IMG/VR virus record: IMGVR_UViG_3300027762_000001
Strand: one strand, 5' to 3'
Source of the DNA: a virus
DNA length: 64,000 bases
Shown here: positions 17,990-64,000 of the stretch, in pieces
Position numbering within the stretch: position 1 is the stretch's first letter
How the letters are laid out: every line of letters starts with the position of its first letter
The notes under the pieces: generated by a model
Told to the model about the DNA's origin: nothing
Database searches by the model: none
The model's input: only the letters and a program-made list of their open reading frames with translations
Program-made: the position numbers and the translations under genes

Positions 17990-18832
17990 CTACGTTAAGT
18001 TATTCTCTAACGCCTTCATAACATCTTTTTTTACTTCACTATACTTTCTCGCTAAAAATATCTCTATAGTTATTTTATCATCAAACTCTTTATAATTTTT
18101 AAAATCTACAAAATCAAATTCTTCATATATGGCGTTTGCAATAATACAAGAATCATTAATTTGGGTTAAACCCTCACTTGATACAACCATATTTTGCATC
18201 TTATTTACTTCTGAACTAACTAATAATTTCATCTTACTTACAAATGAAAAAGACATACTTGTTTCATCTTGAATAATTTTATTTCTCATATTAGAAAAAT
18301 CTTTAAGAAGTGAAGATATTTTCTTTAAAGTATTTTTTCCTTCGTAATAATTAAAATAAAGGGGAATAGTATTTTTGTATTTTAAAAATTCTGAATCCAT
18401 AGTTCCAACCTTATTTTCTTCAAATATTGAAGACAAAGCGTGATACGGCATAGGGGAATCATTTGGTATTTCTGATACTTCAACTTTATCTCTTATCTCA
18501 ATTAATTTTTTAGTTATATCATTTATTATCTCTTGAAGATCTACGATTGATAGAGCATCAAATGTCATTGTCTTTGTGCTATATAAATTATCCGCTAATT
18601 CATTAATATAATTATTTTTATGAATAGTTGTTATGTTATCCATGATAAAATAAATTTTAGTTCTAAGTAGAGATATCTGTGCTAACATTTGAGCATTATA
18701 ATTTTTAACTATTAAATCTAATTTATTTATTCTTTCTCGATTTAATAAATTTATAAAAGTTAGGGCATAAATTATGCATCTGTTTAAATAATCGCTATTA
18801 GGATATTTTTTTATGTAATCTAAATTTATCAC
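17990..18832 (-). CDS. Hypothetical protein
   Basis: 280-aa ORF, translationally coupled to the sigma gene. Confidence 0.6.
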   Translation of the reverse strand: MINLDYIKKYPNSDYLNRCIIYALTFINLLNRERINKLDLIVKNYNAQMLAQISLLRTKIYFIMDNITTIHKNNYINELADNLYSTKTMTFDALSIVDLQEIINDITKKLIEIRDKVEVSEIPNDSPMPYHALSSIFEENKVGTMDSEFLKYKNTIPLYFNYYEGKNTLKKISSLLKDFSNMRNKIIQDETSMSFSFVSKMKLLVSSEVNKMQNMVVSSEGLTQINDSCIIANAIYEEFDFVDFKNYKEFDDKITIEIFLARKYSEVKKDVMKALENNLT

Positions 18833-19680
18833 TATTTTATCCTTTCTTTTAATTTATTCATTATTTTTTTTGCATCATAATAAGTCATACCATTACTTGT
18901 CGCAGCCTGACTTAAATTTTTAGCTGGACGATTTTTAAATTCTCCCAAACCTAGTACATGATATATTAATTTTCTTTCTGGCCTTGTAAAGTTAATCATT
19001 TCTTTTTTTATTCTTTCTTCTTCTTCCATTTTAGCTAACATACTTTCAGGGCTTACTCTGTTTATATTTAAAGTGTCCATTAGTGTAATGGCATCTCCTA
19101 CACCATCTATATTTCCAATAACAGCATCTCCACTATACTCTAATCTCTCATAATCTTTTATTTGTTGCACTTGTTTACTTGTTATTTTTTTATTCATATC
19201 ATTTTTTATAAAACTAACTATCTCATTTACTTTAGGCTCTCTACCATACTCTCTTGTTAGAAAATTAGTAGCAACTGAAACATTTCCCGCTTGTCTTGTT
19301 AACTCTGTAGATTTTCTAACTCCAAAATCCATGTATTCATTTTTTCTTTTTTGAAGCTCTAATGGTAGAGTATTTTTTATAAAAGTTATAGGTTTATTTT
19401 CTTTACTTAAATCAAAGTTTTTCTTTATTATCTTTTTAAACTCAGCAATTCCATGACCCATTGCAGCATCTTGGTCCATTACACTGCCAAGCTGAGCTCT
19501 TTTAACCTCTTGACTGATGACACCTCTATACTCTCTTATGAGTTGCTTCATTGCAAACTTATCATCTCTTTCTTGTATTGCTTTTATAAGCTCCCTCTCT
19601 TTTTTTACTTGAGGGTCCATACTATCAAACTTTGCAAAGGCTATCTTGTCTATCTTCTCTATGAGCTCATTAATATTCAA
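18832..19680 (-). CDS. Divergent sigma70-family RNA polymerase sigma factor
   Basis: Region 2-like AMKQLIREYRGVI and NFDLSKENKPITF; region 3 NFLTREYGREPKVNEI; region 4-like FTRPERKLIYHVLGL plus HTH; likely TTG start at 19680. Confidence 0.75.
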   Translation of the reverse strand: MNINELIEKIDKIAFAKFDSMDPQVKKERELIKAIQERDDKFAMKQLIREYRGVISQEVKRAQLGSVMDQDAAMGHGIAEFKKIIKKNFDLSKENKPITFIKNTLPLELQKRKNEYMDFGVRKSTELTRQAGNVSVATNFLTREYGREPKVNEIVSFIKNDMNKKITSKQVQQIKDYERLEYSGDAVIGNIDGVGDAITLMDTLNINRVSPESMLAKMEEEERIKKEMINFTRPERKLIYHVLGLGEFKNRPAKNLSQAATSNGMTYYDAKKIMNKLKERIK

Positions 19681-19685
19681 AGATA

Positions 19686-20120
19686 TCACTCCCACCAATT
19701 ATATTTATCTATAAGTTTATCAATTTCATTTATCTTAATTAAAATATCTTTTTTAATTTTATCATTTTTATTGTCTAAAGCTAACTTCTGAAACATTACA
19801 AATAAATTATAGGCCTCATTATTAATTTCAGTGACTTCTTCGTTATTAATTGATATAGAAATATTTACAATATAAAGCGCTGCATCCTCTGAAACTTTTT
19901 TTAATTTTTTAAAATCTTTATCCTTAATACATTCTTCACATTTTAAAACATAATTAACCATTACTTTTATTCTTTCATTATTACGCACTTCATTTTCCTT
20001 TTCAATCTGCCTTATAGCTTTTACTCTTTCAGTGCCTATAATATCAGTATCAAAGTAAAATTTATTAATAACAAAAAGCAATGAACCAACCAGTAAAACA
20101 ATTACAATTATATCCTTCAT
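19686..20120 (-). CDS. Membrane-anchored hypothetical protein
   Basis: N-terminal TM IIVIVLLVGSLLFVI. Confidence 0.6.
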   Translation of the reverse strand: MKDIIVIVLLVGSLLFVINKFYFDTDIIGTERVKAIRQIEKENEVRNNERIKVMVNYVLKCEECIKDKDFKKLKKVSEDAALYIVNISISINNEEVTEINNEAYNLFVMFQKLALDNKNDKIKKDILIKINEIDKLIDKYNWWE

Positions 20121-20122
20121 AA

Positions 20123-21232
20123 TTAACCCCTATAACTAACATTATATCCACCAGTATCTACTTCTATATTTAAAGTTTTAAAATTTAAAGAGCAATTTCC
20201 ATCTACATCTATTGAGGCGGATGCTTTTATAGTATCTGTCTCAATATCTTTTATTTGAAGTCTTAATGCTATATCTTTATCCTGAGAAGATTTTACAAAA
20301 TCATCAGAAGATAAATTAGAAATATCATTGATATTTTCAATATTTTTATTTATAGCATTACCTTTCTCTATTATTATTTTAACACCTTTTTTTGTAATAT
20401 TAAAATCAGCTTTTATATCTGACAAAACTTCACTTATTGCATTTGATAATTCTTCGTCAGTAAGTTCTAAATTATTTATCTTATTTCTGAATTCTAAAAT
20501 TTTATTATCAAAATAATCATTGATTTTATTCGACAATTCTTTTGCCTTATTTAATATATCTAACCTAATTTCTTCATTTATTGTAAGATTACTTCCATCT
20601 ATAGATATAATTTCCGATATATCATATGCTCTCGGAATATTAATTTTGCTATAGTACTCTGAATGGCTCAAAACTTTGATTTCAGACTCTTTTAAGTTCT
20701 TTATTGATTTTATATTGTCACCTATCTTAAAGCCGTTTATAACCCTAGAATTGACTGTCAATTTTTCATCTCCTGTAGAGTAAAAACCATTAACTCCATC
20801 TTTTCTCAAAAATATACAATTATTAGATGAGGATGATAATATATTGTTACCTAATGAGTCTTGTCTTAAATATGAGAAGCCAGAAGACTGAATTGAATTT
20901 TCTCCTTCGACTAATTTTTCACTTATAATAAAAGAATTTTCATCTAGTGGAGGCATCGCTAAAGATCCTACTAAATATGTTTTACCTTTTGATGTTAAAA
21001 GTAATAAACATTTTGAACCTACTCTTGGCATAAAACAAGTTCCATAATTGATTCCTTTTGCAGGAAAGCATATAGATACATTGTCATATCTTGTCGCTGA
21101 TTCTGTAACGAATACACTCACTGTTAATGTCAAAGGATTCACACTTATTATTCGACACTCTAAAATGGAGGGAGGTGAATCTCCATGTACTCTGTTCATA
21201 CTATTATTTATAAGTAAATTAGTTTGATTCAA
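20123..21232 (-). CDS. Baseplate central spike protein (gp5/gpV N-terminal OB-fold)
   Basis: IISVNPLTLTVSV...FMPRVGSKCLL; synteny after the hub. Confidence 0.6.
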   Translation of the reverse strand: MNQTNLLINNSMNRVHGDSPPSILECRIISVNPLTLTVSVFVTESATRYDNVSICFPAKGINYGTCFMPRVGSKCLLLLTSKGKTYLVGSLAMPPLDENSFIISEKLVEGENSIQSSGFSYLRQDSLGNNILSSSSNNCIFLRKDGVNGFYSTGDEKLTVNSRVINGFKIGDNIKSIKNLKESEIKVLSHSEYYSKINIPRAYDISEIISIDGSNLTINEEIRLDILNKAKELSNKINDYFDNKILEFRNKINNLELTDEELSNAISEVLSDIKADFNITKKGVKIIIEKGNAINKNIENINDISNLSSDDFVKSSQDKDIALRLQIKDIETDTIKASASIDVDGNCSLNFKTLNIEVDTGGYNVSYRG

Positions 21233-21235
21233 TTT

Positions 21236-22015
21236 TTATTCCCCCTTCATATAATGCTCAGATATATAAATATCTAAATTTTTCATAGTTTCTTTAATTC
21301 TATTACCTCTCCTCTTTATTGTGTCAGGAGAATTATTATATAACTTATTTAAAGATTCTTGCACTTCATTTAAAGTATAATCTTTTGTAAATAAATTTTT
21401 TGTAGACTTTTGCTCTCCCCCACGAACAAAATCAAATCCCGGATAATTTGTCGGAAACTCATCTTGAGAAGAAGGGTCAACTAAACCAGGCACAAAACTA
21501 CTTCCTAATATATTAACATCTCTTCTTGCAATATAATTAAAATATTTAGTTATTTTATTTCTAAGGTCTGCTGTCCAGTGAGGCTTTATTCCACCTCCGC
21601 CAGATAAATAACCACTATTTGTTGATTCAGGATTAATTAAACCGCTATATACTTGAAGTAATATTTTTCTATTTGGTATTTTAGAATCAAACCCTATTAC
21701 ATTTTTAGAACGTATTGCAGGGAGTAAAAAATTATCTGCTGCTATTTTTGCGTTATGAGTTGGATTTTTAAGTTGTGACTCTGTTCCATATTGACTCCCA
21801 TGTACTCTTATATTAATTTGGAATAACCCTACAGAGTGCTCAGGGTTACTGGTTGAGCCATAAAATACAAGGTTATGATTTCCATTAGACTCACACATCA
21901 TAATAGGCCACCATATCCATATAGGTATTTTTCTGGCACCAAAAACGTTGCTTACACTAGCTAACTTATCTTGTGTCATTAATGTGCTCATATCTCTGGT
22001 GTCATAATATGCCAT
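21236..22015 (-). CDS. Virion-associated lytic transglycosylase (lysozyme-like) with shared C-terminal module
   Basis: ESNGN...SVGLFQIN. Confidence 0.7.
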   Translation of the reverse strand: MAYYDTRDMSTLMTQDKLASVSNVFGARKIPIWIWWPIMMCESNGNHNLVFYGSTSNPEHSVGLFQINIRVHGSQYGTESQLKNPTHNAKIAADNFLLPAIRSKNVIGFDSKIPNRKILLQVYSGLINPESTNSGYLSGGGGIKPHWTADLRNKITKYFNYIARRDVNILGSSFVPGLVDPSSQDEFPTNYPGFDFVRGGEQKSTKNLFTKDYTLNEVQESLNKLYNNSPDTIKRRGNRIKETMKNLDIYISEHYMKGE

Positions 22016-22017
22016 TT

Positions 22018-22776
22018 TTATTCCTCCCTAATGTAATGCTCAGATATAAATAATTCAGATTTTTTTACTATATCTTTTATTTTATTTGACCTATTTTTTA
22101 TTACTTGTGGAGAATTATCATATAGTTCATTTAGTAAGCCTTGTACTTCATTTAAAGTATAGTCTTTTGAAAGTAAAAGTCTTGTTGATTTTTGGTCTCC
22201 ACCTGGGTCAAAATCAAAATTAGCTGTATCTTCATATTCTATATCAGGTATTTCTATATTTGAAGATATGTCACTACTTATTTTATTTCTTCCATTTGAC
22301 TCTTCAATATGCCAATCTTCCCACGACATAGGTTTTATAAGTCCATATTTTGCTAATATTTTATTTGCATTTTCCCAATTTTTTTTATTATTTTTTTCTG
22401 GTCCAGCTAACTCTTTTATCCACATACTACTTATGTCAACCGCACCACCAAAACGATGCCTTGATCCTTCTGGAGAGCCAACCATCCGTTGCCCATTATT
22501 TCCGCCAGCATCATCGTATAGCTTTTTTTGATATGAATAACTTCTATAGCCACTAAAAATATTAATCTTTCCATCGCCTTTATATATAGAATTAGAATGT
22601 TTTCTTCCCGCATAATCTCTTGCTAGGTTAGATAATTTACGAAGTAGAGAAGAGTCAACATTTTCTAAGTCAACAAATGCACCAGCTGGATCTACATATA
22701 TTGTATTTTTATATAAATCTGGGCGAAAAAATATACCTCCCTTCGCCCTTATCATAACTACATTTTTACCTGCCAT
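22018..22776 (-). CDS. Virion-associated M15 (VanY-like) peptidase with shared C-terminal module
   Basis: SGYRSYSYQ, SRHRFGGAVDI, EDWHIE. Confidence 0.85.
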   Translation of the reverse strand: MAGKNVVMIRAKGGIFFRPDLYKNTIYVDPAGAFVDLENVDSSLLRKLSNLARDYAGRKHSNSIYKGDGKINIFSGYRSYSYQKKLYDDAGGNNGQRMVGSPEGSRHRFGGAVDISSMWIKELAGPEKNNKKNWENANKILAKYGLIKPMSWEDWHIEESNGRNKISSDISSNIEIPDIEYEDTANFDFDPGGDQKSTRLLLSKDYTLNEVQGLLNELYDNSPQVIKNRSNKIKDIVKKSELFISEHYIREE

Positions 22777-22823
22777 TTTTACATTCCTCTCTTAACGCCC
22801 CTTCATATGGCTACCGTTATTAA

Positions 22824-25166
22824 CTAAAATAGTCCTAGAGGAAGAAAAAATTCTTCTTCTTTCTCTTCGGCCGCTGATGGGTTTAATTCTGTTACAAATT
22901 TATCATATATAGACTTGGCAATTACATGAGTCAGCATACCTTTATATGTTATGTCTGTACGATTTATTATATTTAAAAATTTAATTATAGAATCCTGCGT
23001 CGCCTCACAATACACGCCTATTTCTTTTACATCTTTTTGTTTTAAAGCGCCAAGTTCAATTAGGCGATATTGTGCATACATTATCTCATCATCTTTATCA
23101 CCTAATCCAAATATTTGAGAAAATCTAGATGGAGGAGGCGCATTATAAATATCCATAACCCCTTTAACATTTTCTTCTGGAACTGTTTTTGCAACTTCAT
23201 TTGCAACACTATTTACAACTCCTGCCCCAGAATTCTTTTTATCGTAATTATTACTCCCATAAAAATAATGAAAATATGGACTACTATTAGTCTTTATTAT
23301 AGAGGGATCATCTGACTTATAAAATTCTAAACATTTTTTTCTTATACTTTCAAATTCTTCTGCATTTTTTATTACTTCTCCAAAATCTTCTGATGTTTGA
23401 TGTAAGACATTTACAAACATATTATCATCTACGTTTTGACTTGATGTAGAGTTGAAATTAATTCTATCTCTGCCCATTGATAAATCTAAAGTTGTATATA
23501 CTCCGCCTTGAGGACTCCCTGAGTGAGACACGCTATTAACATAATATATCTTATCTGAACTTACAGGGTCTAGCCAAACATTGAATCCGGGTCTTATCCA
23601 TGGCATTGCTACAGTTGTAACTGGTGCAGTTTCTACCCCTGAATTTAAAAATCCATATAAAAATTTTGCATATTTTTTAAGAATGTTAGTTGCACTATTT
23701 CTGTCAAAGGCAGCAGAGTTAGAGAATTTTATTAGTGGCTGTTGAGTACTGTAAACTGATAAGCCATATTTTCTTTCTTCTTCACTTGGCCTTAAAAGTG
23801 TATCATTATCAATATTATAGTAGTCAGACCACTTTTCTTGACCTGGTGTCTTTGAACCTACTAGTGCTCCAGATGGAACTAGCATTGATTTTTGATAATC
23901 AGTTAAATCCTCCTGATATTCTTCTGCTCCGCCAGTAACAACTACCCTTGTTACTTCATTTCCCCAGTCTGTATTTTCTGCTAAGCTTACTATGAGTAGA
24001 GGATCTATAACATGATCCTTTAAAACCTTCTGATTCCAGAAAGGGGGTTTTATTCTAATTAATCCGTCTCTATCTTGATAAAATTCAAGCATTAAGTTTA
24101 AGGCTATATCATTAATTGCTACATACATGGAATTAACACTTGTATCAGAAGCAGAAACAACAAAATCTACTATTTTTTGCTGAATCAATTCATCACTAAT
24201 ATCACCCATAATTCTAACTCTATCACTAGCGTTATCCCAGTATCCAGCAGTGTTGCCTTCACTATAAATAGCATTTCCGTTTATGGTTCTCTCTAGCATT
24301 GAGCCTATAAATTCTTTTATTGTTTTTCCCCTAAAAGCATTATCAGCTTCACTGCTAACGCCAGCTATTTTACCTATATTAACTCCTTGAGCTAACCACC
24401 TTAATCTGTTTCCACCTGTTAATGTGTCTTGAAACCCAATAGCCAGTGGTACTAACGTTTTATTTAACCATGTCATATAATCAGTAGCAGAAAAACTCAT
24501 AGTGTATCCGTGAGCAGTTCTACTCCTTCTTTTACTTTTTATATTCCCATCAAATACCATTACATATTTACCGTTGAACATATTTTTAATGAATATTCTT
24601 ACATTTGTCATATGTTCAATTCCATCCATAGAAGATAATAACTTTCCATCTTCAGACCTTGTTTCTATCTTATAAAAGTCAGGTAAATAAATCATATCTA
24701 TGTTAGCAGTTCCTATCGAACCATCCTTAGCTATTCTTGTGCTGAATGCAGTTACAAACTGATCGACTCTTATATTATCAAAAAATATTAAATATCCAGC
24801 ATTACCCTCTATCTTTTTTTCTTTTATATTAAAACTTCTAACATAATCATTAGATAGTTTATTTGATGTATTAATAGAAGTTGAACCTGTATCTTTTTTT
24901 GGTGGAGATGCATTGCTTGCAACGTTTAAAGCTTTTTTAAGTTCAGCTTTTGTTTGAGGTCCAACAATACCGTCTGTCGTTATACTTCTACTTTTCTGAA
25001 AATTAATAACTGCAGACCTAGTATTAGAGCCAAAAAAGCCATCGACTCCTTTTGTTGAAAAGTTTAATTTTGTCAAAATTGTTTGTAGCTCTTCTACATT
25101 TTTATTATATTTTTTACCATTTATAGTTTGACTAAGAAGACTTGGCCATGAATCTATATTGTACAT
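22824..25166 (-). CDS. Baseplate hub protein with PG-binding domains
   Basis: N-terminal DGFFGSNT...DGIVGPQT; EFYQDRDGLIRIKPP; PWIRPGF...YYVNSVSH. Confidence 0.7.
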   Translation of the reverse strand: MYNIDSWPSLLSQTINGKKYNKNVEELQTILTKLNFSTKGVDGFFGSNTRSAVINFQKSRSITTDGIVGPQTKAELKKALNVASNASPPKKDTGSTSINTSNKLSNDYVRSFNIKEKKIEGNAGYLIFFDNIRVDQFVTAFSTRIAKDGSIGTANIDMIYLPDFYKIETRSEDGKLLSSMDGIEHMTNVRIFIKNMFNGKYVMVFDGNIKSKRRSRTAHGYTMSFSATDYMTWLNKTLVPLAIGFQDTLTGGNRLRWLAQGVNIGKIAGVSSEADNAFRGKTIKEFIGSMLERTINGNAIYSEGNTAGYWDNASDRVRIMGDISDELIQQKIVDFVVSASDTSVNSMYVAINDIALNLMLEFYQDRDGLIRIKPPFWNQKVLKDHVIDPLLIVSLAENTDWGNEVTRVVVTGGAEEYQEDLTDYQKSMLVPSGALVGSKTPGQEKWSDYYNIDNDTLLRPSEEERKYGLSVYSTQQPLIKFSNSAAFDRNSATNILKKYAKFLYGFLNSGVETAPVTTVAMPWIRPGFNVWLDPVSSDKIYYVNSVSHSGSPQGGVYTTLDLSMGRDRINFNSTSSQNVDDNMFVNVLHQTSEDFGEVIKNAEEFESIRKKCLEFYKSDDPSIIKTNSSPYFHYFYGSNNYDKKNSGAGVVNSVANEVAKTVPEENVKGVMDIYNAPPPSRFSQIFGLGDKDDEIMYAQYRLIELGALKQKDVKEIGVYCEATQDSIIKFLNIINRTDITYKGMLTHVIAKSIYDKFVTELNPSAAEEKEEEFFLPLGLF

Positions 25167-31030: not shown

Positions 31031-31032
31031 TT

Positions 31033-52947: not shown

Positions 52948-53182
52948 ATTTAGTTAAATTTAATAAACATTCTTGGCATATTAATTTTTTTTTAAATTCT
53001 ATCAAGTTTTCAGACTCATCACAAAAATTACAACGAGGACAATACCTTCTAATATGTATAGCTTCATCAACTTTAAAAATTTCACATTCAACCTCATCTG
53101 AAAACCCAGATTCTTCTATCCATTTTTTGGGTAGCAATACTTTACCTCGCGCACCTACTTTTTTCACACCCATAGCTATCAT
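52946..53182 (-). CDS. AbrB-family transcription regulator
   Basis: GVKKVGARGKVLLPK N-domain; CNFC...ICQEC C-domain. Confidence 0.8.
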   Translation of the reverse strand: MIAMGVKKVGARGKVLLPKKWIEESGFSDEVECEIFKVDEAIHIRRYCPRCNFCDESENLIEFKKKLICQECLLNLTK

Positions 53183-53291
53183 ATTGTATCCTCCTTATTT
53201 GTTATAGCTTGATATTTTTTAGCCTTAACAATATAATTTTATTATATAGTTATAAAATGTCTACTATTTTTTGAAAATAAGGAGTGATATT

Positions 53292-54254: not shown

Positions 54255-54274
54255 AAATGGAAGGAGGAACCTTT

Positions 54275-55378
54275 ATGCCTCACGGTGCAGTCAAGACTCC
54301 CGAGCAAGAAGTGTTATGGGAAAAGGCAAAATTGCAAGCCGAAAAGCAGGGTCAAAAAGATAACTTTGCCTATATAATGGCTATATATAAAAATATGGGC
54401 GGTCTTAATAAAACTGCTATGGAAGATATTTTTATGGAGAAAACAGCTAAAGTTGGTTTTATAGGAAGGGTATTAGGGAAAAATGTAGGCATTGCAAAAA
54501 AAGAATTAGGCTCAGCTCTTAAAGATTTTCAAACAAAAAAAAGTTTATTAAGAAATAAAAAAGTCCAATCAGGTTTTAAATTAGGGCCACTTGATTTTAG
54601 AAAAGAAACTCCATTATACAATAAGTCTGAAATTAGAAAAATATTAAGTTCAGACATGAATAAACTGCAAGATCTTAGAACATTAAAAAAACTTGAAAAT
54701 AAAGAAACTTTTAATGCTAGAGTTAAAGGTGCTTTAGGTTTGGGCGGATTAGCAGCTGCAACACCTTATTTAAAAGATAAAATAGTAAAAGGTAAATACA
54801 CTTATCCACAAGAAACTTATACGGAAGAAACTATTGCGAACAGTGTAGTGCATGGTCTACTAAAGGAAGCTTCAATAAAAAATAAAACTCTCAACTTTTT
54901 AAAGGGAGTAAAAGATATTGGTACATTTAAAGGATATAGTGCTGCAAAACAAAATTTAAAAAATATAGAGAAGGGAGTAAATCCAACTTATTCCCTAAAA
55001 ATAAAAGAGCTTATAGGCCTTAAGAGGTCCATTAAAAACTTAAGCGGAAAAAATGAAGAGTTGAAAAAACAAATATTAAGAGAAAAAGGGTTGGATGAAA
55101 ACTCTGTATCAAGAACAATAATAGACAGAATAAAAGATGGCAATGATGTTTTAAATGCAAAAAGCAGAAGGGCGAAAGATTTAGAAAATTTATATAAAGG
55201 TAATCAAGATATTATTGGAACTGCAAATAATAAATACCAAAAAGAATATAATAAATTTGTTGACGTTAAAGACAGGGAGCTCTCTAAATCACTTGGTCTC
55301 TGGAGCATTCCAACTGTAGGAGCCCTTTATGGTGGTAAAAAAATATTAGATAAACGAAAAGAAAAGGGTAGTCCTTGA
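54275..55378 (+). CDS. Putative internal/ejection protein (basic, two hydrophobic cassettes)
   Basis: NKTAMEDIFMEKTA; GALGLGGLAAA; GLWSIPTVGALYGG. Confidence 0.55.
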   Translation: MPHGAVKTPEQEVLWEKAKLQAEKQGQKDNFAYIMAIYKNMGGLNKTAMEDIFMEKTAKVGFIGRVLGKNVGIAKKELGSALKDFQTKKSLLRNKKVQSGFKLGPLDFRKETPLYNKSEIRKILSSDMNKLQDLRTLKKLENKETFNARVKGALGLGGLAAATPYLKDKIVKGKYTYPQETYTEETIANSVVHGLLKEASIKNKTLNFLKGVKDIGTFKGYSAAKQNLKNIEKGVNPTYSLKIKELIGLKRSIKNLSGKNEELKKQILREKGLDENSVSRTIIDRIKDGNDVLNAKSRRAKDLENLYKGNQDIIGTANNKYQKEYNKFVDVKDRELSKSLGLWSIPTVGALYGGKKILDKRKEKGSP

Positions 55379-55441
55379 TTATTTTGTTTCAATAAATTAA
55401 AATAGTTTTATAATACTTATTCTTTGGGAGGTTTTTAAGTT

Positions 55442-56371
55442 ATGAATAATAATGAATATAACGTATTGGTTGAAAAGTTAGCAGAGGAAATTATAGTTGA
55501 TACAGCAAAAAGATCGGAAGGTAATTTTGGGCAACCAGGAAGCTTTCCAAATATGCAACAAGAACCAAATGGTGGAGTGTCAGGTTTAGAAAGAGGCGGA
55601 GAAGAATCAAAGAGTATAGGGTCTAAGTTTTTAGATTTTATAAAAGGAACTAAAAAAGTAGAAGTTGGACCTAATGTTGTTGCTGATGCTTCAACAGGAG
55701 ATTATGCGGTTAGTGAAACTAAAGTTGCTTATGAAGAATTAGAACTAGTTAAAACTGCAGCTGAAAAAGCTTTTAATGAAGCTGACAATTATGTTCACAG
55801 TGATTCAATAAAAGAAGCAGCTTATCAAATCTATGAAGAAGCAATAGAAAAAGAAGCTACTCTAGCTTATTCTGAATCTCAAATGTTAAAACAAGCAGCT
55901 GAAGAAGCTTTCTCTGAAGCTGATAATTATGAAGATGAAGAATATATTAAACAAGCAGCTTATGAAATATTCATGGAAGCTGAAGAAGTTGAAAAGGCAG
56001 CATCAGAATATTTAGCAGAAAAAACTATAGAAGAAGCTGCGGAAGCATTTGATTACTCTCAAATGTTAAAAAGTGCGGCTGAAGAAGCTTATGCAGAAGC
56101 TGACAATTATGAAGACAGCGAGTATATCAAACAAGCAGCAGAAGAAATTTACGCTGAAGCTTTAAGTATAGAAAAAGAGGCTGGTAGCTTTTTAGTTGAA
56201 ATAGAAAAAGTAGCCGAAGAAGCGGCAGAAGAAGCAACTAAAGAAGAAGAAGATGAAGAGGAAGAAGAAGATGAAAAAGAAGAGCCTAAAGAAGATAAAG
56301 AAGAGGCTTCTAATAGTATGGCTCAAAAAATAATAGAAGAAGCGGCAAAGAAAAAAATGAATAACGAATAA
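55442..56371 (+). CDS. Acidic scaffold/core protein with three internal repeats
   Basis: KxAAEEAFxEADNYEDxEYIKQAA-type unit x3. Confidence 0.6.
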   Translation: MNNNEYNVLVEKLAEEIIVDTAKRSEGNFGQPGSFPNMQQEPNGGVSGLERGGEESKSIGSKFLDFIKGTKKVEVGPNVVADASTGDYAVSETKVAYEELELVKTAAEKAFNEADNYVHSDSIKEAAYQIYEEAIEKEATLAYSESQMLKQAAEEAFSEADNYEDEEYIKQAAYEIFMEAEEVEKAASEYLAEKTIEEAAEAFDYSQMLKSAAEEAYAEADNYEDSEYIKQAAEEIYAEALSIEKEAGSFLVEIEKVAEEAAEEATKEEEDEEEEEDEKEEPKEDKEEASNSMAQKIIEEAAKKKMNNE

Positions 56372-56397
56372 GCAAATCTTTAAAATCAGACATTTAA

Positions 56398-56428
56398 AAG
56401 GCATTTCTTTAATTTAAAGAAATGCCTT
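56398..56428 (+). terminator. Hairpin (terminator or processing site)
   Basis: AAGGCATTTCTTTA...TAAAGAAATGCCTT. Confidence 0.5.
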
Positions 56429-56450
56429 CTTCATAGAAAGGAGCATAGAG

Positions 56451-57872
56451 ATGGAGAAAAATTCTGGAGTAGGTAGCATATTAAGTACCGCATATGTTGG
56501 AAGTGAAGCTATTAAGGGAGCAAAGGAAAGTAAAAGACTCCTTAAAAATCCTAATGTAAATAAGTTTGATGAAATTTTAAAAAACACTCCACAAAAAACT
56601 ATTTCAACTTTTAAAATGTCATCAGCAATTGACGAGCTGTATCTTGAGAAATTATCATACGAAAACAATCAAAATAATGAAGATAAAAAAAAGAAAAGAA
56701 ATATAGCGCCTTACATAATTGGAGCATCTATATTGGGAGCTGGCGCTGCTGAAGCTATAAAAACAGGAAATCCATTAAGGCCACTGAGAACTGCAGGTAA
56801 AGCCTTGAAGGAATTTGGGCACAAGCTACCTAAAGCTGTACTTGGCAGAAGTGGAAAACCTATATTTGAAGGTTTAAGAAAATCTAAACAGATAGTTCAG
56901 GATACCAAAAAGTTTGATAAAGCATTACATGGAGGATCGCCACAAAATCTTCTCCATTATTATTTGCCAGGCGTTGTTTTTGGTGGAGGTATGGGTGCAA
57001 GCAATTTAGCGGTTCATTTGTTGGGAGATAAATACTTTGATAAAAAAGTTAATAGAAAATCATATAATAATTTCCCAAGCCCTAGTGTTCAAATATATAG
57101 AAAGAGAAAATCAGCATCAGATATGATAGATAATAATTTCATGGAAAAAATAGCACAACTAAAAGGCAAAGCTTTTGCTAAAAAATTATTTGTTGAAGAT
57201 TTTTTACAAAATAGTTTAAAAACAATACCTTTTGCACTAACTCCAATAGCTGTATCTCATGCAATGAATAGAAATTTAAAAACTGATTTTAGTCCAATAA
57301 GAGGAAGTAAAGCTCAAAATCATAATGTTGATAAAATTATAATCGAAGTGCCAAGAGAAAAACTTATTAAAACAGCAAACGTAAAAAAAAATTTTCAACT
57401 ATATAAAAAATTAAAAGGTAAAAATTTTAAAGGGTTTACTTTCAGTAAATTTAAACCTAAAGCTGATTCAGGTATAGAGTCATGGGAAAATTTTGCAAAA
57501 TATAGGGTGCCTGAAGGCATGGTCAGGTCTTTAAGTTGGTTTGGAGTTCCTGCGGCTATAACTGCGCTAACTGGAAGAAATATAAAAGGCTTAGGAGAAA
57601 AAGTTAAAAAACATGAAGATATAGATCCTGATAAAGTCAGAATAACAGTTGATAGAGGTTCTGAATACGATGATGCAAATAAATTTATGGATGCATCTAG
57701 AATGTCAAGAATGGCAGATACTAATGAATTATTTATTGAGAAAAAATCAAGTGTGACAAAAGACATAGATAAAATAGTGAAAAATATTTTATCTGAAAAT
57801 AAAAAACTTAAATCAATAAATCCAAGAGTTATAACTCAAGGTATTCAAAAAAACAAAAAAATGTTAGGATGA
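56451..57872 (+). CDS. Putative internal/ejection polyprotein
   Basis: IDELYLEKLS, IDNNFMEKIA, TNELFIEKKS separating basic/hydrophobic cassettes. Confidence 0.55.
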   Translation: MEKNSGVGSILSTAYVGSEAIKGAKESKRLLKNPNVNKFDEILKNTPQKTISTFKMSSAIDELYLEKLSYENNQNNEDKKKKRNIAPYIIGASILGAGAAEAIKTGNPLRPLRTAGKALKEFGHKLPKAVLGRSGKPIFEGLRKSKQIVQDTKKFDKALHGGSPQNLLHYYLPGVVFGGGMGASNLAVHLLGDKYFDKKVNRKSYNNFPSPSVQIYRKRKSASDMIDNNFMEKIAQLKGKAFAKKLFVEDFLQNSLKTIPFALTPIAVSHAMNRNLKTDFSPIRGSKAQNHNVDKIIIEVPREKLIKTANVKKNFQLYKKLKGKNFKGFTFSKFKPKADSGIESWENFAKYRVPEGMVRSLSWFGVPAAITALTGRNIKGLGEKVKKHEDIDPDKVRITVDRGSEYDDANKFMDASRMSRMADTNELFIEKKSSVTKDIDKIVKNILSENKKLKSINPRVITQGIQKNKKMLG

Positions 57873-58123
57873 TAATTTTGAATAATATAATAAGCGTAAT
57901 AACTGAAGCTGCATCAAAGAAAAAATTAGTTGAAATAACATATCAAGACTCAAAAGGTCTTGTTACAAACAGAGAGACAGAGCCATATGAAATAAGAGAT
58001 AATTCTTATTATGGATTTTGTATTTTAAAAAACAGTATAAGAAAATTTAAATTATCTAACATTTTGTCAGCCAAAATGTTAGATAATGAGTATAGACCTA
58101 AGTGGTCAGTTAAAATTCCGTAA
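57869..58123 (+). CDS. Stand-alone WYL-domain protein
   Basis: VEITYQDSKG...REtEPYEI...YYGFC...IRKFKLSNI. Confidence 0.8.
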   Translation: MIILNNIISVITEAASKKKLVEITYQDSKGLVTNRETEPYEIRDNSYYGFCILKNSIRKFKLSNILSAKMLDNEYRPKWSVKIP

Positions 58124-58196
58124 AGATAGGCTGCTTTACTTTGATTGCTATTTATAATAAAATTTAAATTGAAAACATAATAAAGGAGGTTTAATC

Positions 58197-58340
58197 ATGG
58201 AATATAAAAATCATCCAGGATTTATCGCTTTTAAAGCTTCTAATGTAAAAGAAGATGTAAGCTGTAAAGAAGAAAATATTGATAAAGATATCGTTGAGCC
58301 TGAGAAAAAGAATGAAGGTGGTGACGAAGGCAAAGAGTAA
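58197..58340 (+). CDS. 47-aa acidic peptide (not in ORF track)
   Basis: SD AAAGGAGG; MEYKNHPGFIAFKAS... Confidence 0.55.
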   Translation: MEYKNHPGFIAFKASNVKEDVSCKEENIDKDIVEPEKKNEGGDEGKE

Positions 58341-60210
58341 AATCTTTGCCTTAATACTTATGAGAAAATTATCTGATTCTATAATAAAAGAAGCATGTGA
58401 AGAACTAAATGTTGAAGGAAAGCTAGAAAAAAAGGCTTTAAACTTTGCAGATTTTTCTTTTTTGCCAGGATCTATATTGGGCTCAATAACTGGCTCAATT
58501 ATAGCTGGGAATAAAGTTAAAGCTGAGAACCTTCAAAGAAGAATGGAAGAAGAGGACAGAACAGCTTTAAGCGGAAATTATTATAACCAGGCTCAAAATA
58601 TAGTTAATAACTTAAAAGTTGTATTCACGCCATTTGGAGTTATATATATAGTAAAAGATGGCCCTAAAGAAACTACGATTGAAAATATAAACACAAATGA
58701 AATGAATACAGCTATGTACTCTGCTTGGCAAGCTAAAGATGCAGAATACTTTAAAAATATACTATTAAACAAAATGCAAAGTGAGCTTCAATTTGTTGAA
58801 CAAATGTTTGCAAAAAAAATGGTGGAAAAACAGCTTGGTATAAATAATACGATAAAACAAGAAAAGAAAGCATCTATAGATTTTAATGACTTAACTTTAT
58901 ATGAAACTTTAGAGTATGTATCAAAAATGAAGGATATGTATTCTAAACAAAATGAAGCTACAGAGAAGATAGCATCTCTTTTAATTAATGAGATGGATGA
59001 AAGAGAAGATGATTATGTTATATCTTTAAAGTTAGAAAGACCAGTAGAAAAATATGCTTTCTTCGGAGAGGCTTTAAAATTTATGGGGCTTGAAGTAGGA
59101 AGTAAAGACATAAAATCATTACAAGGAAAATTTCTTAATCCATCACATTTAAATAATAGAGTTCAAGTAGGCTTTTTACCTGATAGAGTTGTTTTTATAG
59201 TTGATAATAAGGTTATGTCTTCTCTTCTTGCTATGGATATGAATGAGGAGGGATTTGAGAATTTTAATAAAAGTAATGAAGGTTACTTTAGAAACTTATT
59301 TAAAGAAGAAGCTAAAAAAGGAATGTTAAGAATTCAAGGTAAGATTCCGCCTAATTCTCCTTTAATGAAAATGCAAGAAAAAAAAGCATCTTTTGAGGAT
59401 AATGACTTATCTCAAATCTTTAAAAGAAACGACATACATCCTTTAATTTATTATAAAGCTTTAACAAAAACATTCGGTGATACATGGATTTCATGGGACG
59501 GCAATGCACTTGTTAAAGCAATAGAAAACTCTTTTAATTTAAAAGATGGTGTACCTAGTATTCCACTAAATAAAATATTATCAATAGAAGTTTGTAATTC
59601 TAGCTATACTCCATATACAAGTAAGCATGCTTTCGAGAAGATAATAAGAGGTTTTACTGAAAAATCAGTTAACTTTATGGAGAGAGAAATCTCAGATATA
59701 ACTCCAGAAGATTTAGCTCTAGGTATAGATGCTTTAGATTTAGTAACTCCTAATGATGATATATATGATAATTTCAATCATGAAGTCTTCTCTCATATAA
59801 TTGAAATCTTATTGATAAATAATTGTAAAATATTTTATCCGTCAGAAATGACAGACTCTGTTTTAAAAGATGAATTTTATAGTCAATTAAATGAATATCT
59901 TTTAAATGCTACAAATAAAAAAGATATTGAAGCTATAGACAATAAGAAGCTTGAGAGTAAAACCATAAGTAATAATACGATAATAAATAAAGTATCTTTA
60001 TCTATACTTAACAATATAAGGAAAGTAAAAAAATCTTCTGATTTTGATAATATAAAATTCATTTCAGATGTACTAAATAAAACAAGTATAGAAGATAATA
60101 TAAAAAGCATTATTGAAAAACAAGTTACAAATAATATATTTTTAGATGAAGTATTGGTTATCAAAACAAGAGTATTAAAAGAGCAACTCGCTTTTCTTGA
60201 GCTAAATTAG
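58321..60210 (+). CDS. Putative head protein upstream of portal
   Basis: Several KKA/KIA/KYA sites; internal duplication (VVFTPFGVIYIV vs VGFLPDRVVFIV); likely GTG start. Confidence 0.55.
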   Translation: MTKAKSKIFALILMRKLSDSIIKEACEELNVEGKLEKKALNFADFSFLPGSILGSITGSIIAGNKVKAENLQRRMEEEDRTALSGNYYNQAQNIVNNLKVVFTPFGVIYIVKDGPKETTIENINTNEMNTAMYSAWQAKDAEYFKNILLNKMQSELQFVEQMFAKKMVEKQLGINNTIKQEKKASIDFNDLTLYETLEYVSKMKDMYSKQNEATEKIASLLINEMDEREDDYVISLKLERPVEKYAFFGEALKFMGLEVGSKDIKSLQGKFLNPSHLNNRVQVGFLPDRVVFIVDNKVMSSLLAMDMNEEGFENFNKSNEGYFRNLFKEEAKKGMLRIQGKIPPNSPLMKMQEKKASFEDNDLSQIFKRNDIHPLIYYKALTKTFGDTWISWDGNALVKAIENSFNLKDGVPSIPLNKILSIEVCNSSYTPYTSKHAFEKIIRGFTEKSVNFMEREISDITPEDLALGIDALDLVTPNDDIYDNFNHEVFSHIIEILLINNCKIFYPSEMTDSVLKDEFYSQLNEYLLNATNKKDIEAIDNKKLESKTISNNTIINKVSLSILNNIRKVKKSSDFDNIKFISDVLNKTSIEDNIKSIIEKQVTNNIFLDEVLVIKTRVLKEQLAFLELN

Positions 60211-60221: not shown

Positions 60222-62189
60222 ATGAGTGATATAAATAAAGACATAACAGAATTAGATGAACTTCCAATGAACGCCATAGATCTTGACAATCCTCTTGATG
60301 GTGATGATAAAAAAATTGCAATGTTAAGAGAGGAAAAAGATAAGGCTATAAGTATGGTGAAGATTGCATCTTTTGATGGAAGACTTCAAGACCCATACCC
60401 TACTCCATTTTTAAATTTATCCGATACCAAGATACCTAGGACATCAACTGAAATTTTTAAATGGTGTAAATATTTTTATACTTTTGACCCGCTAATTGCA
60501 GGAGCCATTAATGCACTATCCACTTTTCCAGTTACTGAAATTTATTTAGAAGATGTAGATGAAAACGGAAAAGGCGATAAAAATGAAGATAGTGATACTT
60601 TAATTTTATATAAAAAAATCTTTTTTAAAGATTTAAATATATATAAAATGTTAATTGAAATAGGTATAGATTATTATTTGTATGGCAACTGCTTTATATT
60701 TGGAGAACTACATACAAATAAAGCAACTGGTAGTGTTGAGTGGAAGAACATGGTGAGACTTGATCCTAATAGAGTTATTATAGATTATAACCCGGCTACA
60801 AAAGAAAAGAAATTTAAATGGAGAGTATCTCCATCTATTGCTAAAATTATAAAAGATAAAAAGCCAAAAGATGAGTATAATAAAATACCAGATATAATGA
60901 AAGAGGCAGTACTTAAAAATAACTCTATAGTATTAAATTCAAATAATATATATCACTTCCCAAGACCTACAGATTCAGCGGGAGATAATAATATTTGGGG
61001 AACACCTATTATTGCAAATGTACTAAAACTTTTAATGTATAGAAATATATTAAGACAATCTCAGGAGGCTATTGCGAGAGAACATATAGTGCCTATGAGA
61101 GTTTATTATTTAGATAGAACCAATGATTATAATCCTACGGCTGATTGGAATAAAGTTGCATCTAACTTTGCTGCTGAACTTAATAAATCAGTAAAAGACC
61201 CTAATTATAAAGTTGTATCTCCTGTTCCTGTTAATTTGATAAATGTTGGAGGTCAAGGAAGGGCTTTATTATTAACTCCAGAAATAGAGCAAATACAAGC
61301 TGAGATTTTGGCAGGAATGAATGTTCCAAGAGAGTTTATATTTGGTGGAGTTGGTTATTCTGGAAGTTCTATATCTTTAAAAATATTAGAAAATCAGTTT
61401 ATAACTTATAGACTTTTACTAAAAGACTTTATGCAAAACTTTATAATAAAAAATATGGCTAAAGCTAGAAAAGAATGGGTTAGTGAAAAGGATGATAGTT
61501 CATTAATTACAGTTAAAATGATGGACTTAAAAATGCAAGATGACGTACAGCAAAAACAATTAGTAATACAATTAAATCAAGCTGGCAAATGTACTAATGA
61601 GTATATGTGGAAAGTTATAGGAATGGACCCTGATAAAATGAGGGAGTCATTAAAAGATGAAGCAATAGAAGCTATAAAAACTGATACAGAAATAAAAATG
61701 GAGCAGTTAAAATCACAATTAGAACTTCAAAAGGTGCAGATGCAAGTAGATCAAGAAATAAGAAAATTCCAATTAGAGATGTATAAAAGTGACCCACAAA
61801 TGAATCAGGAAGAAGCTCAAATGAGTCAGGAACAACAAATGATGCAACAGCCTATGCAAGGACAGGGTCAAAGTCAAGACCAAGGTATGCATCCAGCGGC
61901 ACAAGGTCAAATGCAACCAGAGCAAATGCAACCAGAGCAAAATCCAGCTATTGACGAATCTGATGTCGTCAATGAGGATGCTCAGATTCAAAATGTTGCT
62001 CTTCAATTAATTAAAACAGGGGAAAAAGGAAGAGATGCTTTCTTAGCTTCCTTGCCTGATAGATATAAACAAAAAGTTATAAAGAAAATGCAAGAATTAA
62101 CAACATCTATGAATAATCAGCAAGGTGCAGGAATAGATATGAGACCTATGCCAGAACAAAAACCACCAAGAAGAGATAGCCTAAAATAA
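60222..62189 (+). CDS. Portal protein
   Basis: DPLIAGAIN...YLYGNCF...LDPNRV...WGTPII...ILAGMNVP; Q-rich tail. Confidence 0.75.
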   Translation: MSDINKDITELDELPMNAIDLDNPLDGDDKKIAMLREEKDKAISMVKIASFDGRLQDPYPTPFLNLSDTKIPRTSTEIFKWCKYFYTFDPLIAGAINALSTFPVTEIYLEDVDENGKGDKNEDSDTLILYKKIFFKDLNIYKMLIEIGIDYYLYGNCFIFGELHTNKATGSVEWKNMVRLDPNRVIIDYNPATKEKKFKWRVSPSIAKIIKDKKPKDEYNKIPDIMKEAVLKNNSIVLNSNNIYHFPRPTDSAGDNNIWGTPIIANVLKLLMYRNILRQSQEAIAREHIVPMRVYYLDRTNDYNPTADWNKVASNFAAELNKSVKDPNYKVVSPVPVNLINVGGQGRALLLTPEIEQIQAEILAGMNVPREFIFGGVGYSGSSISLKILENQFITYRLLLKDFMQNFIIKNMAKARKEWVSEKDDSSLITVKMMDLKMQDDVQQKQLVIQLNQAGKCTNEYMWKVIGMDPDKMRESLKDEAIEAIKTDTEIKMEQLKSQLELQKVQMQVDQEIRKFQLEMYKSDPQMNQEEAQMSQEQQMMQQPMQGQGQSQDQGMHPAAQGQMQPEQMQPEQNPAIDESDVVNEDAQIQNVALQLIKTGEKGRDAFLASLPDRYKQKVIKKMQELTTSMNNQQGAGIDMRPMPEQKPPRRDSLK

Positions 62190-62201
62190 GGATGTGATTA
62201 A

Positions 62202-62417
62202 ATGAAAAGAGGAATAAAAACATTTATACTTCCTATGCAGGATAAAGAAGCTTCAATTTTTATGAATAATAAAGATATAGTTGTAACACTAAAGGAGAGA
62301 CACTTTGCCCCAAAAGAGGGATTACTATATTTATATATAGAATATGACGACTTCGCTCCTGAAGGTGAAGATTATGAAGATTGTGATGAAGGTGGGTGTT
62401 TATTAAATGATACATGA
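62202..62417 (+). CDS. Small hypothetical protein between portal and RNAP
   Basis: 71 aa; overlaps the RNAP start. Confidence 0.55.
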   Translation: MKRGIKTFILPMQDKEASIFMNNKDIVVTLKERHFAPKEGLLYLYIEYDDFAPEGEDYEDCDEGGCLLNDT

Positions 62418-64000
62418 AAAAACTGAAGATTTAAAAAGAAGACTTATGAATTTTATGCAGAGGAATACACCCATTAAGGCTGATACTAGAAGTTTACATA
62501 TTGAGAACTTAACTATAACAGAGCCTTCAGCAGTAAATGATTTAGACCAACAGCTTAACATGAAGTATTCTGAATCAGGAAATTTAAAGGGTTGGCTTAG
62601 GGGAAATGTTACAGTTACAGACAATAAAACAAATAAAGAAATAGCAAAAACTAATCCGATAAATTTAATACCTGTATATTATATGACTGATAGAGGTACA
62701 TATATAAGTAATGGTATTGAGAAAAATATTTTAACTCAAATGAGATTAAAACCTGGAGTCTATACTGAAAAAGGTGCTGACATAAGAACCAATCTTATGT
62801 TTGATATGACAAAACAGTATCTTCCTAGAATAGATATTATATTTGATCCAGGTGCAATGTCATTTAAAATTATTATAAAAAGAGGAAAAGACACTAAATT
62901 TGATGGCATTGGATTTTTAAGAGAATTAGGTTTTTCTGATGCTGAAATAAAAAGAGCTATTGGTAACGATTCAGTTTCTGATATGCTATTTTCAGTAAGC
63001 AGAGAAAGAAAAAGTATATACGATATATTTAAAGCTATAACTGGTAAAACATCTAGTGATACGCCAGATAAAACAAGAGATATGTTATTTTCTTATTTTG
63101 ATAATGAAATGACGTTTGGAGAAGATGGTAAGGAGTCAGTTAAATCAACTATAAATTCAAGTTCTAAAAGTTTAAATAAAGATATAATATTAAGGTCTGT
63201 AAATAAAAACTTTGCGGTATTTAGAAATGAAGTTGAAGAAGACGATAAAGATGATTTAAGATTTAAAGTTGTATCAGATGATAATGATTTGATAATGGAA
63301 GAAGTTGCACAAGACTTTGAGGTATTTAAATCATCTGTAATAAATACTTTAAATACAAGAGAAGTTTTAAATTCATCAGACTTAAGAGGATTAACTAAGT
63401 TAGGGAAAAATATTGATAAATTCATGAAAGAAAGTGATTTATCGCAAAATCCGGAACAGACTAATCCACTAGAAATAGCATCCATTGATAGAAAAGTTAC
63501 TCAGATAGGTGGGTTTCAAGGTATATCAAAAGACAATGCTGACAAAGTTATTAAACCAAGAAACTTAAAAGCTATGGCAATTAATAGATTAGATCCAGTT
63601 GAAACTCCAGAGTCAACAAAGATAGGATTAATAGAACATTTAACTCAAAGTGCTGAGGTTAAAAATAAAACTATTAGTACAGAGTTTATAAAAGTAAAAG
63701 ATGGCGTTGCCGTAAATACTCTTGCCAATGTAGTTAAATTAACTCCAGATAAAGAGTATGACTCTAAAGTTGCCTTTTATGATTTAAGATATATAAGAAA
63801 AGATGGTAACAAAATAATATTTACAAAAGATGTAATTCCAGGAAGATATAAAAGTAAAATTCAAGATATTCATATAAGTGAAATACAGTATGTTGATAGA
63901 GCTCCGCAAAACCTTTTAAATTATGCTGCAAATATGATACCCTTCGTAAGTCATGATGATGGAAACAGAACACTTATGGGTACTAATATGCAAAGACAGG
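62407..64000 (+). CDS. rpoB: Phage multisubunit RNA polymerase beta-subunit homolog (3' truncated; absent from ORF track)
   Basis: Open to the window end; PVYYMTDRGTYISNG...QMRLKPGVY, DDKDDL, LSQNPEQTNPL, RLDPVETPESTKIGL, MIPFVSHDDGNRTLMGTNMQRQ. Confidence 0.92.
   Translation, partial: MIHEKTEDLKRRLMNFMQRNTPIKADTRSLHIENLTITEPSAVNDLDQQLNMKYSESGNLKGWLRGNVTVTDNKTNKEIAKTNPINLIPVYYMTDRGTYISNGIEKNILTQMRLKPGVYTEKGADIRTNLMFDMTKQYLPRIDIIFDPGAMSFKIIIKRGKDTKFDGIGFLRELGFSDAEIKRAIGNDSVSDMLFSVSRERKSIYDIFKAITGKTSSDTPDKTRDMLFSYFDNEMTFGEDGKESVKSTINSSSKSLNKDIILRSVNKNFAVFRNEVEEDDKDDLRFKVVSDDNDLIMEEVAQDFEVFKSSVINTLNTREVLNSSDLRGLTKLGKNIDKFMKESDLSQNPEQTNPLEIASIDRKVTQIGGFQGISKDNADKVIKPRNLKAMAINRLDPVETPESTKIGLIEHLTQSAEVKNKTISTEFIKVKDGVAVNTLANVVKLTPDKEYDSKVAFYDLRYIRKDGNKIIFTKDVIPGRYKSKIQDIHISEIQYVDRAPQNLLNYAANMIPFVSHDDGNRTLMGTNMQRQ

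Follow-up and report, generated by a model that had tools for sequence, protein, structure and literature searches.

The stretch of DNA described here (the window, 64,000 nucleotides in length) corresponds to positions 38475-102474 in a viral record of 152,620 bp and 30% GC from an uncultured phage. It contains, within a baseplate operon, the gene of a sigma70-family factor and, at its far end behind the portal gene, the beginning of the gene of a single-chain RNA polymerase (RNAP). The two proteins are likely to form a holoenzyme that reads promoters private to the phage, and the best single explanation of their gene positions and composition, on which the arguments for and against are about evenly balanced, is that both are carried in the virion. 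The phage belongs to a large contractile-tailed group that includes Salmonella phage Arash (OQ632216; locus label L057). It was compared with two complete relative genomes, G002 and G003, with a relative contig, C31, found in the 1.4-Mb bin G001, and with further relative loci, L007-L010 and L051-L055. The features discussed below are collected in Table 1.

The sigma gene starts with a TTG codon preceded by a GGTGGGAG ribosome-binding site, and encodes a true but divergent sigma70-family protein. The sequence alone found no match in Pfam or PHROG, tblastn against 50,697 phage records gave none, and a locus search with the single sequence returned no relative. An exhaustive search yielded 68 relatives of 260-305 amino acids. 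The profile of 61 relatives (A1) matches solved SigA, SigF and RpoS chains with E values of 1e-16 to 1e-12 over profile positions 20-280, that is, regions 2-4; by Pfam, Sigma70_r3 is matched by six of these 61 members and Sigma70_r4 by two. The AlphaFold2 (AF2) model, with a predicted local distance difference test (pLDDT) of 90.8, is small and all-helical and shows the three-domain sigma2-sigma3-sigma4 fold, and all 50 matches listed by Foldseek for it are sigma chains or sigma-containing models (probability 1.00). The presence of a sigma70-like gene in the baseplate operon, claimed in an original prediction made from the letters of the window, is confirmed by the profile, the model and the structural matches, and structure prediction, one of the checks proposed there, returned a sigma fold. 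By its alignment the protein falls outside Group 1 (SigA-like), as the residues reading TATAAT and TTGACA are not conserved: the SigA stretch TYATWWIRQ aligns with the family consensus TYitnnlkk (ITFIKNTLP in this sigma), in which the WW pair reading the -10 element is not kept, and the SigA stretch TRERIRQ, carrying the R/E/R of region 4.2 that reads the -35 element, is not conserved in the family alignment. A search of this genome for a second sigma with PF04542 (sigma region 2) was empty, with controls matched. G002 encodes a second, two-domain (ECF-like, extracytoplasmic function) sigma at G002:C1:49491-50150 (L030), directly behind a GTATAAG promoter, and a homolog lies inside a 485-amino-acid open reading frame (ORF) of G003 (58326-59783); no homolog of it is detectable in this genome.

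The part of the RNAP ORF inside the window matches Pfam Rpb2_3, and the full ORF in the 152,620-bp record encodes 2276 amino acids in which Rpb2_3/6/7 are followed by Rpb1_1-5, with the NADFDGD motif intact at residue 1502. The gene had been described as an RNAP beta homolog co-oriented with the portal gene. Both statements hold, the portal (phrog_16240) lying upstream on the same strand; since the ORF spans Rpb2 and Rpb1 domains with NADFDGD, it is a complete beta-beta' fusion and thus more than a beta homolog, and the beta' part, which was to be sought past the window end, is found in the same chain. Full-length fused relatives are present on six viral contigs at 44-52% identity. A search of the genome for an alpha subunit with PF01000 gave no match, and control genomes matched. 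The only four Cys residues of the RNAP are those of the second beta' zinc site (residues 1095-1135), and the N-terminal zinc ribbon is absent. An RNAP match on contig C3 of bin G001 was not used as a phage relative, as this contig has no other gene in common with the phage. Its start is a 2036-amino-acid open frame covering rpoB and rpoC (G001:C3:20-5851; L012, L013) at 31-33% identity, which may be the cellular fused rpoBC of the bin and hence a host clue.

Sigma and fused RNAP occur together in all three complete genomes (this phage, G002 and G003). Modelled as a complex with beta' residues 1060-1420, the sigma reaches a score of 0.78, the best of three controls scoring 0.00; the mark that it passes is also met by 58 of 80 solved complexes and by 2 of 110 mismatched pairs. 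Contact agreement among three runs is at least 26%, and partner pLDDT is at least 70. The modelled interface places sigma residues 41-82 on beta' residues 1296-1344, which is the textbook contact between region 2 and the clamp helices; the model therefore shows compatibility, and its pass may stem from likeness to solved holoenzymes. Co-occurrence and the predicted complex together suggest that the sigma binds the phage RNAP, and with only one sigma and no alpha subunit detectable in the genome and a private promoter core traceable as far as Arash they support the holoenzyme proposed in the original prediction.

The putative promoters in question carry the class I motif YATAAGAWATAAA / TAG-Y-ATAAGAWATAAAAG, which occurs genome-wide in 13 copies on the + strand and none on the - strand (0.24 expected). 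Most copies are intergenic, 20-130 nt 5' of + strand non-structural genes and often after a terminator. There are 33 copies in G002 and 20 in G003, on one strand only in each (<0.25 expected), C31 has six on its non-structural strand, and the GTATAAG core also precedes genes of Arash, whose genome has 54% GC. The claim of a non-sigmaA motif before early-looking genes is upheld by this strand split and this conservation. Because the motif is constant while host and GC content vary, it is best explained by a phage-encoded reader, and we infer that the (G/C)-Y-ATAAG-core promoters belong to the phage sigma. The - strand virion operons are preceded by TGnTATAAT-like sites. In a genome of 30% GC, extended -10 sites often arise by chance, and they also stand before some replication genes, so timing cannot be read from promoter class, and a scheme in which class I promoters are early and sigmaA-like ones late was rejected. 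A GTATAAG-type motif lies directly 5' of the sigma gene in a distant member (L052:7963-7978) and of gp9-gp10 in Arash (L057:11589-11604), which suggests that the sigma is positively autoregulated in some lineages.

Both genes occupy conserved positions among virion genes. Around the sigma gene the conserved order is tape measure, hydrolases, a protein of ~360 amino acids, sigma, a protein of ~250 amino acids, gp25-like protein and Baseplate_J. This order is seen in L007-L009, L010, G001:C31, G002, G003, L051, L052, L053 and L054, about 10 independent lineages reaching down to 21% identity, and the sigma gene is two genes upstream of Baseplate_J in every relative examined, so that its position, which was to be compared among relatives, proves conserved. 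An overlap of 1-4 nt between sigma and the next gene is also found in L007, L010 and L051-L054, and nearly all relatives are coupled. Portal gene, small ORF and RNAP gene also follow one another in G002, G003 and Arash, and the block of 327 amino acids ... 473, 84, 643, portal, small ORF and RNAP is conserved as a unit in G002 and G003. The small ORF shares a PKEG..LY motif among this phage, G002 and G003, and no sequence similarity was found between the 71-amino-acid product here and Arash gp205; this small protein may help the RNAP to assemble or serve it as an accessory factor. Since the RNAP gene follows the portal gene and the sigma gene is coupled within the baseplate operon, both proteins would be made together with virion parts. 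The invariant position in the baseplate cluster and the translational coupling to the next gene could also be read as signs that the sigma-like protein is an exapted structural component of the baseplate with no role in transcription. This is extremely unlikely, given the full sigma2-sigma3-sigma4 architecture at high confidence, the predicted canonical docking on the clamp helices, and the fact that the RNAP requires a sigma and has no other at its disposal.

Evidence from particles comes from Arash, in which the gene orders are portal gp204, small gp205, RNAP gp206, and hydrolase gp8, gp9, sigma gp10, gp11, gp12, J-like gp13. Besides the portal, the J-like protein (E 4e-10) and the RNAP (~26% identity) are homologous to those of this phage, and gp10, in the same gene slot, matches the sigma family (hhalign probability 98.1%). 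In mass spectrometry of Arash particles from a sucrose gradient, RNAP gp206 gave the most spectra of any protein (3516), and gp216, the sigma gp10 (100% coverage, 467 spectra) and the helicase gp217 were also detected (PMC10585845). The statement in the original prediction that no characterised packaged sigma70-type factor is known is outdated by this detection of gp10 (PMC10585845).

A second line of evidence is Cys content, which splits the proteome into virion or cargo proteins with 0-0.7% Cys and cytoplasmic enzymes with 1.3-2.2%. In this genome the values are 1.79% for the + strand non-structural proteins, 2.2% for TerL and 1.6% for PolIII alpha, versus 0.67% for the tail/head module, 0.35% for the portal operon, 0.22% for the leader-protein operon treated below, 0.18% for the RNAP (4 Cys in 2276 amino acids, all in the zinc site) and 0% for the sigma. 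The same split is found in G002, G003 and Arash, and the Arash particle proteins listed with high counts include gp4, gp10 and gp217, which have no Cys, and gp206, which has one.

The preferred scheme is as follows. The system would consist of a fused beta-beta' core, with no alpha detected, one dedicated sigma70-family factor and private (G/C)-Y-ATAAG-core promoters that stand before non-structural blocks only. With the RNAP gene behind the portal gene and the sigma gene coupled to its neighbour in the baseplate operon, both proteins would be made along with virion parts from sigmaA-like promoters, enter the particle, and later enter the cell along with the DNA. In the new host, they would transcribe the genes with GTATAAG promoters without the host enzyme, and host-type promoters would later drive the virion operons, including fresh RNAP and sigma for the progeny. 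Protein identities, gene positions, co-occurrence, the motif with its conservation and Cys depletion are observed here; sigma-RNAP binding, packaging and timing are what we infer. The packaging of both subunits, as originally proposed, gains indirect support from their place in virion-gene operons in every relative, from virion-like Cys depletion and from the Arash particles, and stands overall at about the halfway mark.

Several points weigh against packaging. The Arash preparation, purified by sucrose gradient only and moderately clean, yielded a list of 116 proteins, among them ribonucleotide reductases and a kinase, and its authors allow carry-over of abundant proteins (PMC10585845). Arash, the source of the particle evidence, is distant (~26% RNAP and 25% portal identity). 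The RNAP is a 260-kDa single chain, a large cargo to eject, and it has no leader. SigmaA-like sites before replication genes mean that promoter class maps poorly onto timing. A near-consensus -35/-10 promoter heads the portal-RNAP operon; in G003 a terminator and then a separate TGGTAAAAT promoter precede the RNAP gene, and in L054 the sigma gene, which is leaderless, opens its own unit with a terminator and TTGATA...TGTTACAAT. As sigmaA-type promoters stand before RNAP or sigma in some relatives, host RNAP could make both proteins early and de novo.

These promoters are the basis of an account without packaging, in which host RNAP with sigmaA makes sigma and RNAP early from promoters in the virion modules, the phage holoenzyme then reads GTATAAG as a middle class, and expression of the structural operons (extended -10, no clear -35) awaits an activator, like p4 of phi29. 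It accommodates the TTGATA-17-TATAAT promoter of the portal-RNAP operon, the dedicated sigmaA-type promoters directly before RNAP (G003) and directly 5' of sigma or of the sigma-led baseplate unit (G002, L007, L054), two extended -10-like sites that precede this sigma gene by 42 and 84 nt, and the carry-over allowed for Arash particles (PMC10585845). Given the operon layout and the translational coupling, however, the portal and baseplate genes would under this account have to be expressed early along with RNAP and sigma, and it leaves unexplained both the virion-like Cys depletion of the two proteins and the top spectrum count of the RNAP in Arash particles; we regard it as a serious but rather unlikely account. 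In another alternative, sigma alone is delivered, for example by the tail or baseplate, and redirects the host core to GTATAAG promoters, the phage RNAP being made later and not as cargo. The position of the sigma gene between the conserved hub-position gene and the wedge genes, its coupling to a baseplate-cluster gene in nearly all relatives, the small, all-helical form of the protein and the lack of a leader on the RNAP would fit such delivery. The RNAP, however, is as poor in Cys as the sigma and is the most abundant protein in Arash particles, and the sigma strictly co-occurs with the phage RNAP and is predicted to fit the phage clamp helices, which favours the phage core over the host core, so that delivery of sigma alone is very unlikely.

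The original prediction also held that the sigma carries a leader like those of head proteins and is clipped by the prohead protease. A short N-terminal peptide common to several cargo proteins and ending at a putative protease site would resemble the capsid-targeting sequence of T4, cleaved by gp21 on IPI-III and Alt, and pro-sigmaE and pro-sigmaK of Bacillus are parallels for a sigma stored and then clipped; the motif of T4 is L/I-x-E, versus K-x-A here. A strong leader family, approximately YKExIYKxA, opens at least eight proteins of this phage, is also found between domains of large proteins, and is present in G002 and G003. The head-module proteins have K-x-A near the N-terminus in all but one case, and in four genomes the capsid protein, the protease and the two scaffold-like proteins each keep, close to the N-terminus, K-(T/F/E)-A with S, G or A as the next residue. 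The capsid protein has ~8-10 extra N-terminal residues relative to its solved homolog, phage G gp27; a literature search for papers citing 6WKK found none, and a PDB search with the 789-amino-acid protease gave no match. From the conservation of K-x-A in head proteins and the N-terminal excess of the capsid protein, a K-x-A cleavage code is plausible for the head proteins.

For the sigma such a code is doubtful. The N-termini quoted in the original prediction are all present, but the match of the sigma to the leader family is weak: with a hidden Markov model (HMM) of 18 leaders from which the sigma was left out, its N-terminus ranks 24th of 567 with 5.8 bits, versus 10-19 bits for true leaders. 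The sigmas of G002 and G003 are absent among the 36 best-scoring N-termini, and no leader motif was found in the RNAP. Conservation of the leader in sigma homologs, proposed as a check, is partial: among members with an N-terminal extension, 33 of 37 keep K-phi-A/G within the first 25 residues (~11% expected), and leaderless members exist, those of L054 and L055 being real, without an upstream coding extension. Arash gp10 starts three residues before the block equivalent to the conserved ERELI and is therefore leaderless as well. The view that the prohead protease clips the sigma is thus not supported, given the leaderless RNAP, the weak leader match, the leaderless sigmas and an Arash gp10 that is leaderless at 100% coverage; it is improbable and the weakest step of the scheme.

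Within the leader-bearing sub-clade, the sigma might be stored as a pro-sigma whose K-phi-A helix acts as a weak form of the tag found on Cys-poor cargo enzymes and polyproteins (SNF2 helicase, ligase-ART and others), loading the sigma and being clipped at maturation, so that the active pair is freed only in the next host; in a variant, the sigma would be carried in the tail tip or baseplate in association with the coupled 280-amino-acid protein and enter before the DNA. This reading is improbable. It is fairly probable instead that the N-terminal helix is a working part of the sigma, through autoinhibition like that of region 1.1 or contact with the phage core, rather than a targeting peptide or propeptide, its likeness to the leaders reflecting a shared amphipathic pattern. 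The low HMM score and the absence of the G002 and G003 sigmas from the top 36 point this way, as do the AF2 model, in which the N-terminus is a helix of moderate confidence, the leaderless members, and the Arash sigma, which lacks the helix yet was found, fully covered, in particles. Against it speak the retention of K-phi-A/G in most extended sigmas and the same K-x-A in capsid, scaffold-like and protease proteins.

A papain-type C1 peptidase, for which a hydrophobic P2 would fit, was considered as processor of the leaders and rejected, as G002 and G003 retain leaders but encode no counterpart of it. Its gene (window 51374-52282, + strand; Peptidase_C1, E 3e-45), with a terminator directly 3' (52302-52333), is unusual in a phage. 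Outside the window, a long - strand operon (genome 144202-152617 and 331-4216) encodes Cys-poor proteins with the YKExIYKxA leader at the start or between domains. Its members include a ligase-containing protein of 800 amino acids, a protein of 496 amino acids and a WYL-SNF2 helicase (window 76487-78619 equivalent), and together they resemble a group of cargo proteins or polyproteins made for ejection.

The closest known system is that of Arash, likewise a myovirus, which shares with this phage the order portal, small ORF, RNAP, a sigma gene between a cell-wall hydrolase and a Baseplate_J-like gene, the GTATAAG core, and Cys-poor RNAP and sigma. It differs in having its RNAP split into two genes 5 kb apart (gp206, beta plus N-terminal beta'; gp216, C-terminal beta') where there is one chain here, a sigma of 234 amino acids without leader, a further sigma (gp196), a genome of 54% GC and Salmonella as its host, with ~25% identity overall; the Arash paper reports detection in particles only, without functional work (PMC10585845). 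A phage system of sigma and RNAP has thus been on record since 2023, and what is new here is the single-chain core, the leader-bearing sigma in a leader-tagged cargo set, and the comparative data on promoters and Cys. Phages phiKZ and AR9 also package a multisubunit-type RNAP, encoded among late genes, and transcribe early genes from non-host promoters (PMC7598289, PMC5312081), but their RNAP is split into 4-5 very divergent polypeptides, they have a second, non-virion RNAP, and no sigma70-type factor was found in them (PMC7824862), whereas a sigma is present here. The RNAP of this phage accordingly lies outside the phiKZ type, being a single chain of 2276 amino acids with Pfam-recognisable domains and a sigma. 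The preferred scheme follows the same logic as that of N4, in which the host sigma70 enzyme transcribes the polymerase gene late, the protein is packaged, and the early promoters are unreadable by the host (PMC4496689); the N4 polymerase, unlike the present one, is a single-subunit T7-like domain in a 3500-amino-acid protein that uses hairpin promoters and no sigma. The mReC phages are likewise uncultured tailed phages encoding multisubunit RNAP beta and beta' (Weinheimer and Aylward 2020, PMC7481178); by their published description they have a gp23-type capsid (PF07068) in contrast to the phage G gp27-like capsid here, and sigma, virions and promoters are unmentioned in it (PMC7481178).

If the preferred scheme is true, a widespread group of phages that has hardly been studied delivers a full bacterial-type holoenzyme to its host, which would be a third route to independence from host transcription, beside the single-subunit enzyme of N4 and the split, sigma-less enzymes of phiKZ. 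A one-chain beta-beta' without alpha, a sigma with altered readers and a very regular GTATAAG promoter would also make a compact orthogonal system that could be rebuilt in vitro, and the group informs RNAP assembly without alpha. Cys depletion would offer a cheap, sequence-only predictor of ejected proteins that can be checked against the Arash proteome.

Table 1. Features in the window, with strand and basis of assignment
Feature	Position	Strand	Basis or remark
Class I promoter-like motif, one mismatch	1720..1736	+	motif match
Class I promoter-like motif TAGCATAAGATATAAAA, exact	2209..2225	+	motif match
Baseplate_J/gp6-like wedge protein	15479-17233	-	homologous to Arash gp13
gp25-like sheath initiator	17246-17971	-	weak Pfam Sheath_initiator match
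280-amino-acid conserved gene coupled to sigma	17990..18832	-	TAGTG overlap of sigma stop and next start
Sigma70-family factor, 282 amino acids, regions 1.2 to 4	18832..19680	-	profile, AF2, Foldseek
Sigma N-terminal helix MNINELIEKIDKIA, K-phi-A 'leader'	19639..19680	-	~14 residues; weak leader-HMM match
Genes upstream of sigma: 144 amino acids, 369 amino acids, SLT and PG-binding cell-wall hydrolases	19686..25166	-	same order in relatives
Head module: 789-amino-acid protein (N-terminal prohead-protease domain), two scaffold-like proteins, capsid protein, 126-amino-acid leader protein	37354..43821	-	phrog_18299, phrog_2522
Major capsid protein	37806-38840	-	resembles phage G gp27
Class I promoter-like motif, exact	44793..44809	+	motif match; head of + strand non-structural block
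Terminator (52917-52947), then TTGATA-17-TATAAT sigmaA-type promoter (53209-53237)	52917..53237	+	head of portal-RNAP operon
Conserved genes before portal (327, 373, 309, 473, 84, 643 amino acids)	53271..60210	+	309-amino-acid protein with leader
Portal protein	60222..62189	+	phrog_16240; 25% identity to Arash gp204, E 2e-46
71-amino-acid ORF overlapping RNAP start	62202..62417	+	ORF in same slot in G002, G003, Arash (gp205)
RNAP, first 531 codons	62407..64000	+	single-chain beta-beta' RNAP, 2276 amino acids; 5237 bases more past window end

The tail, baseplate and head module occupies the - strand (window 6779-43821) and opposes + strand blocks. Within the pair of wedge protein and sheath initiator (15479..17971, - strand), phrog_2669 and phrog_6 (baseplate wedge) are matched, and the conserved 369-amino-acid protein in the baseplate-hub position gave no family match. 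The 144-amino-acid protein next to sigma (window 19686-20120, - strand) carries a membrane helix at its N-terminus and is not kept among relatives; within its gene lie the two extended -10-like sites mentioned above (TGATAAAAT and TGATAAACT, 84 and 42 nt before the sigma start, respectively). The record carries a 123-bp 'direct terminal repeat' (genome 1-123 and 152498-152620) that sits within an ORF; the true genome ends are therefore not given by this repeat, which is probably the overlap of a circular assembly and not a pair of physical ends. Genes diverge from two large intergenic regions of 631 and 665 bp, one at window 43822-44858 and one, outside the window, at genome 4217-4881. Both contain a (TA)n run and a common element of ~100 nt (...ACCCCCCTTTATATTTTTT...CTCAACTCGCACAACGATTTCG...GGACACTT) in opposite orientation, and could be an origin or regulatory element.

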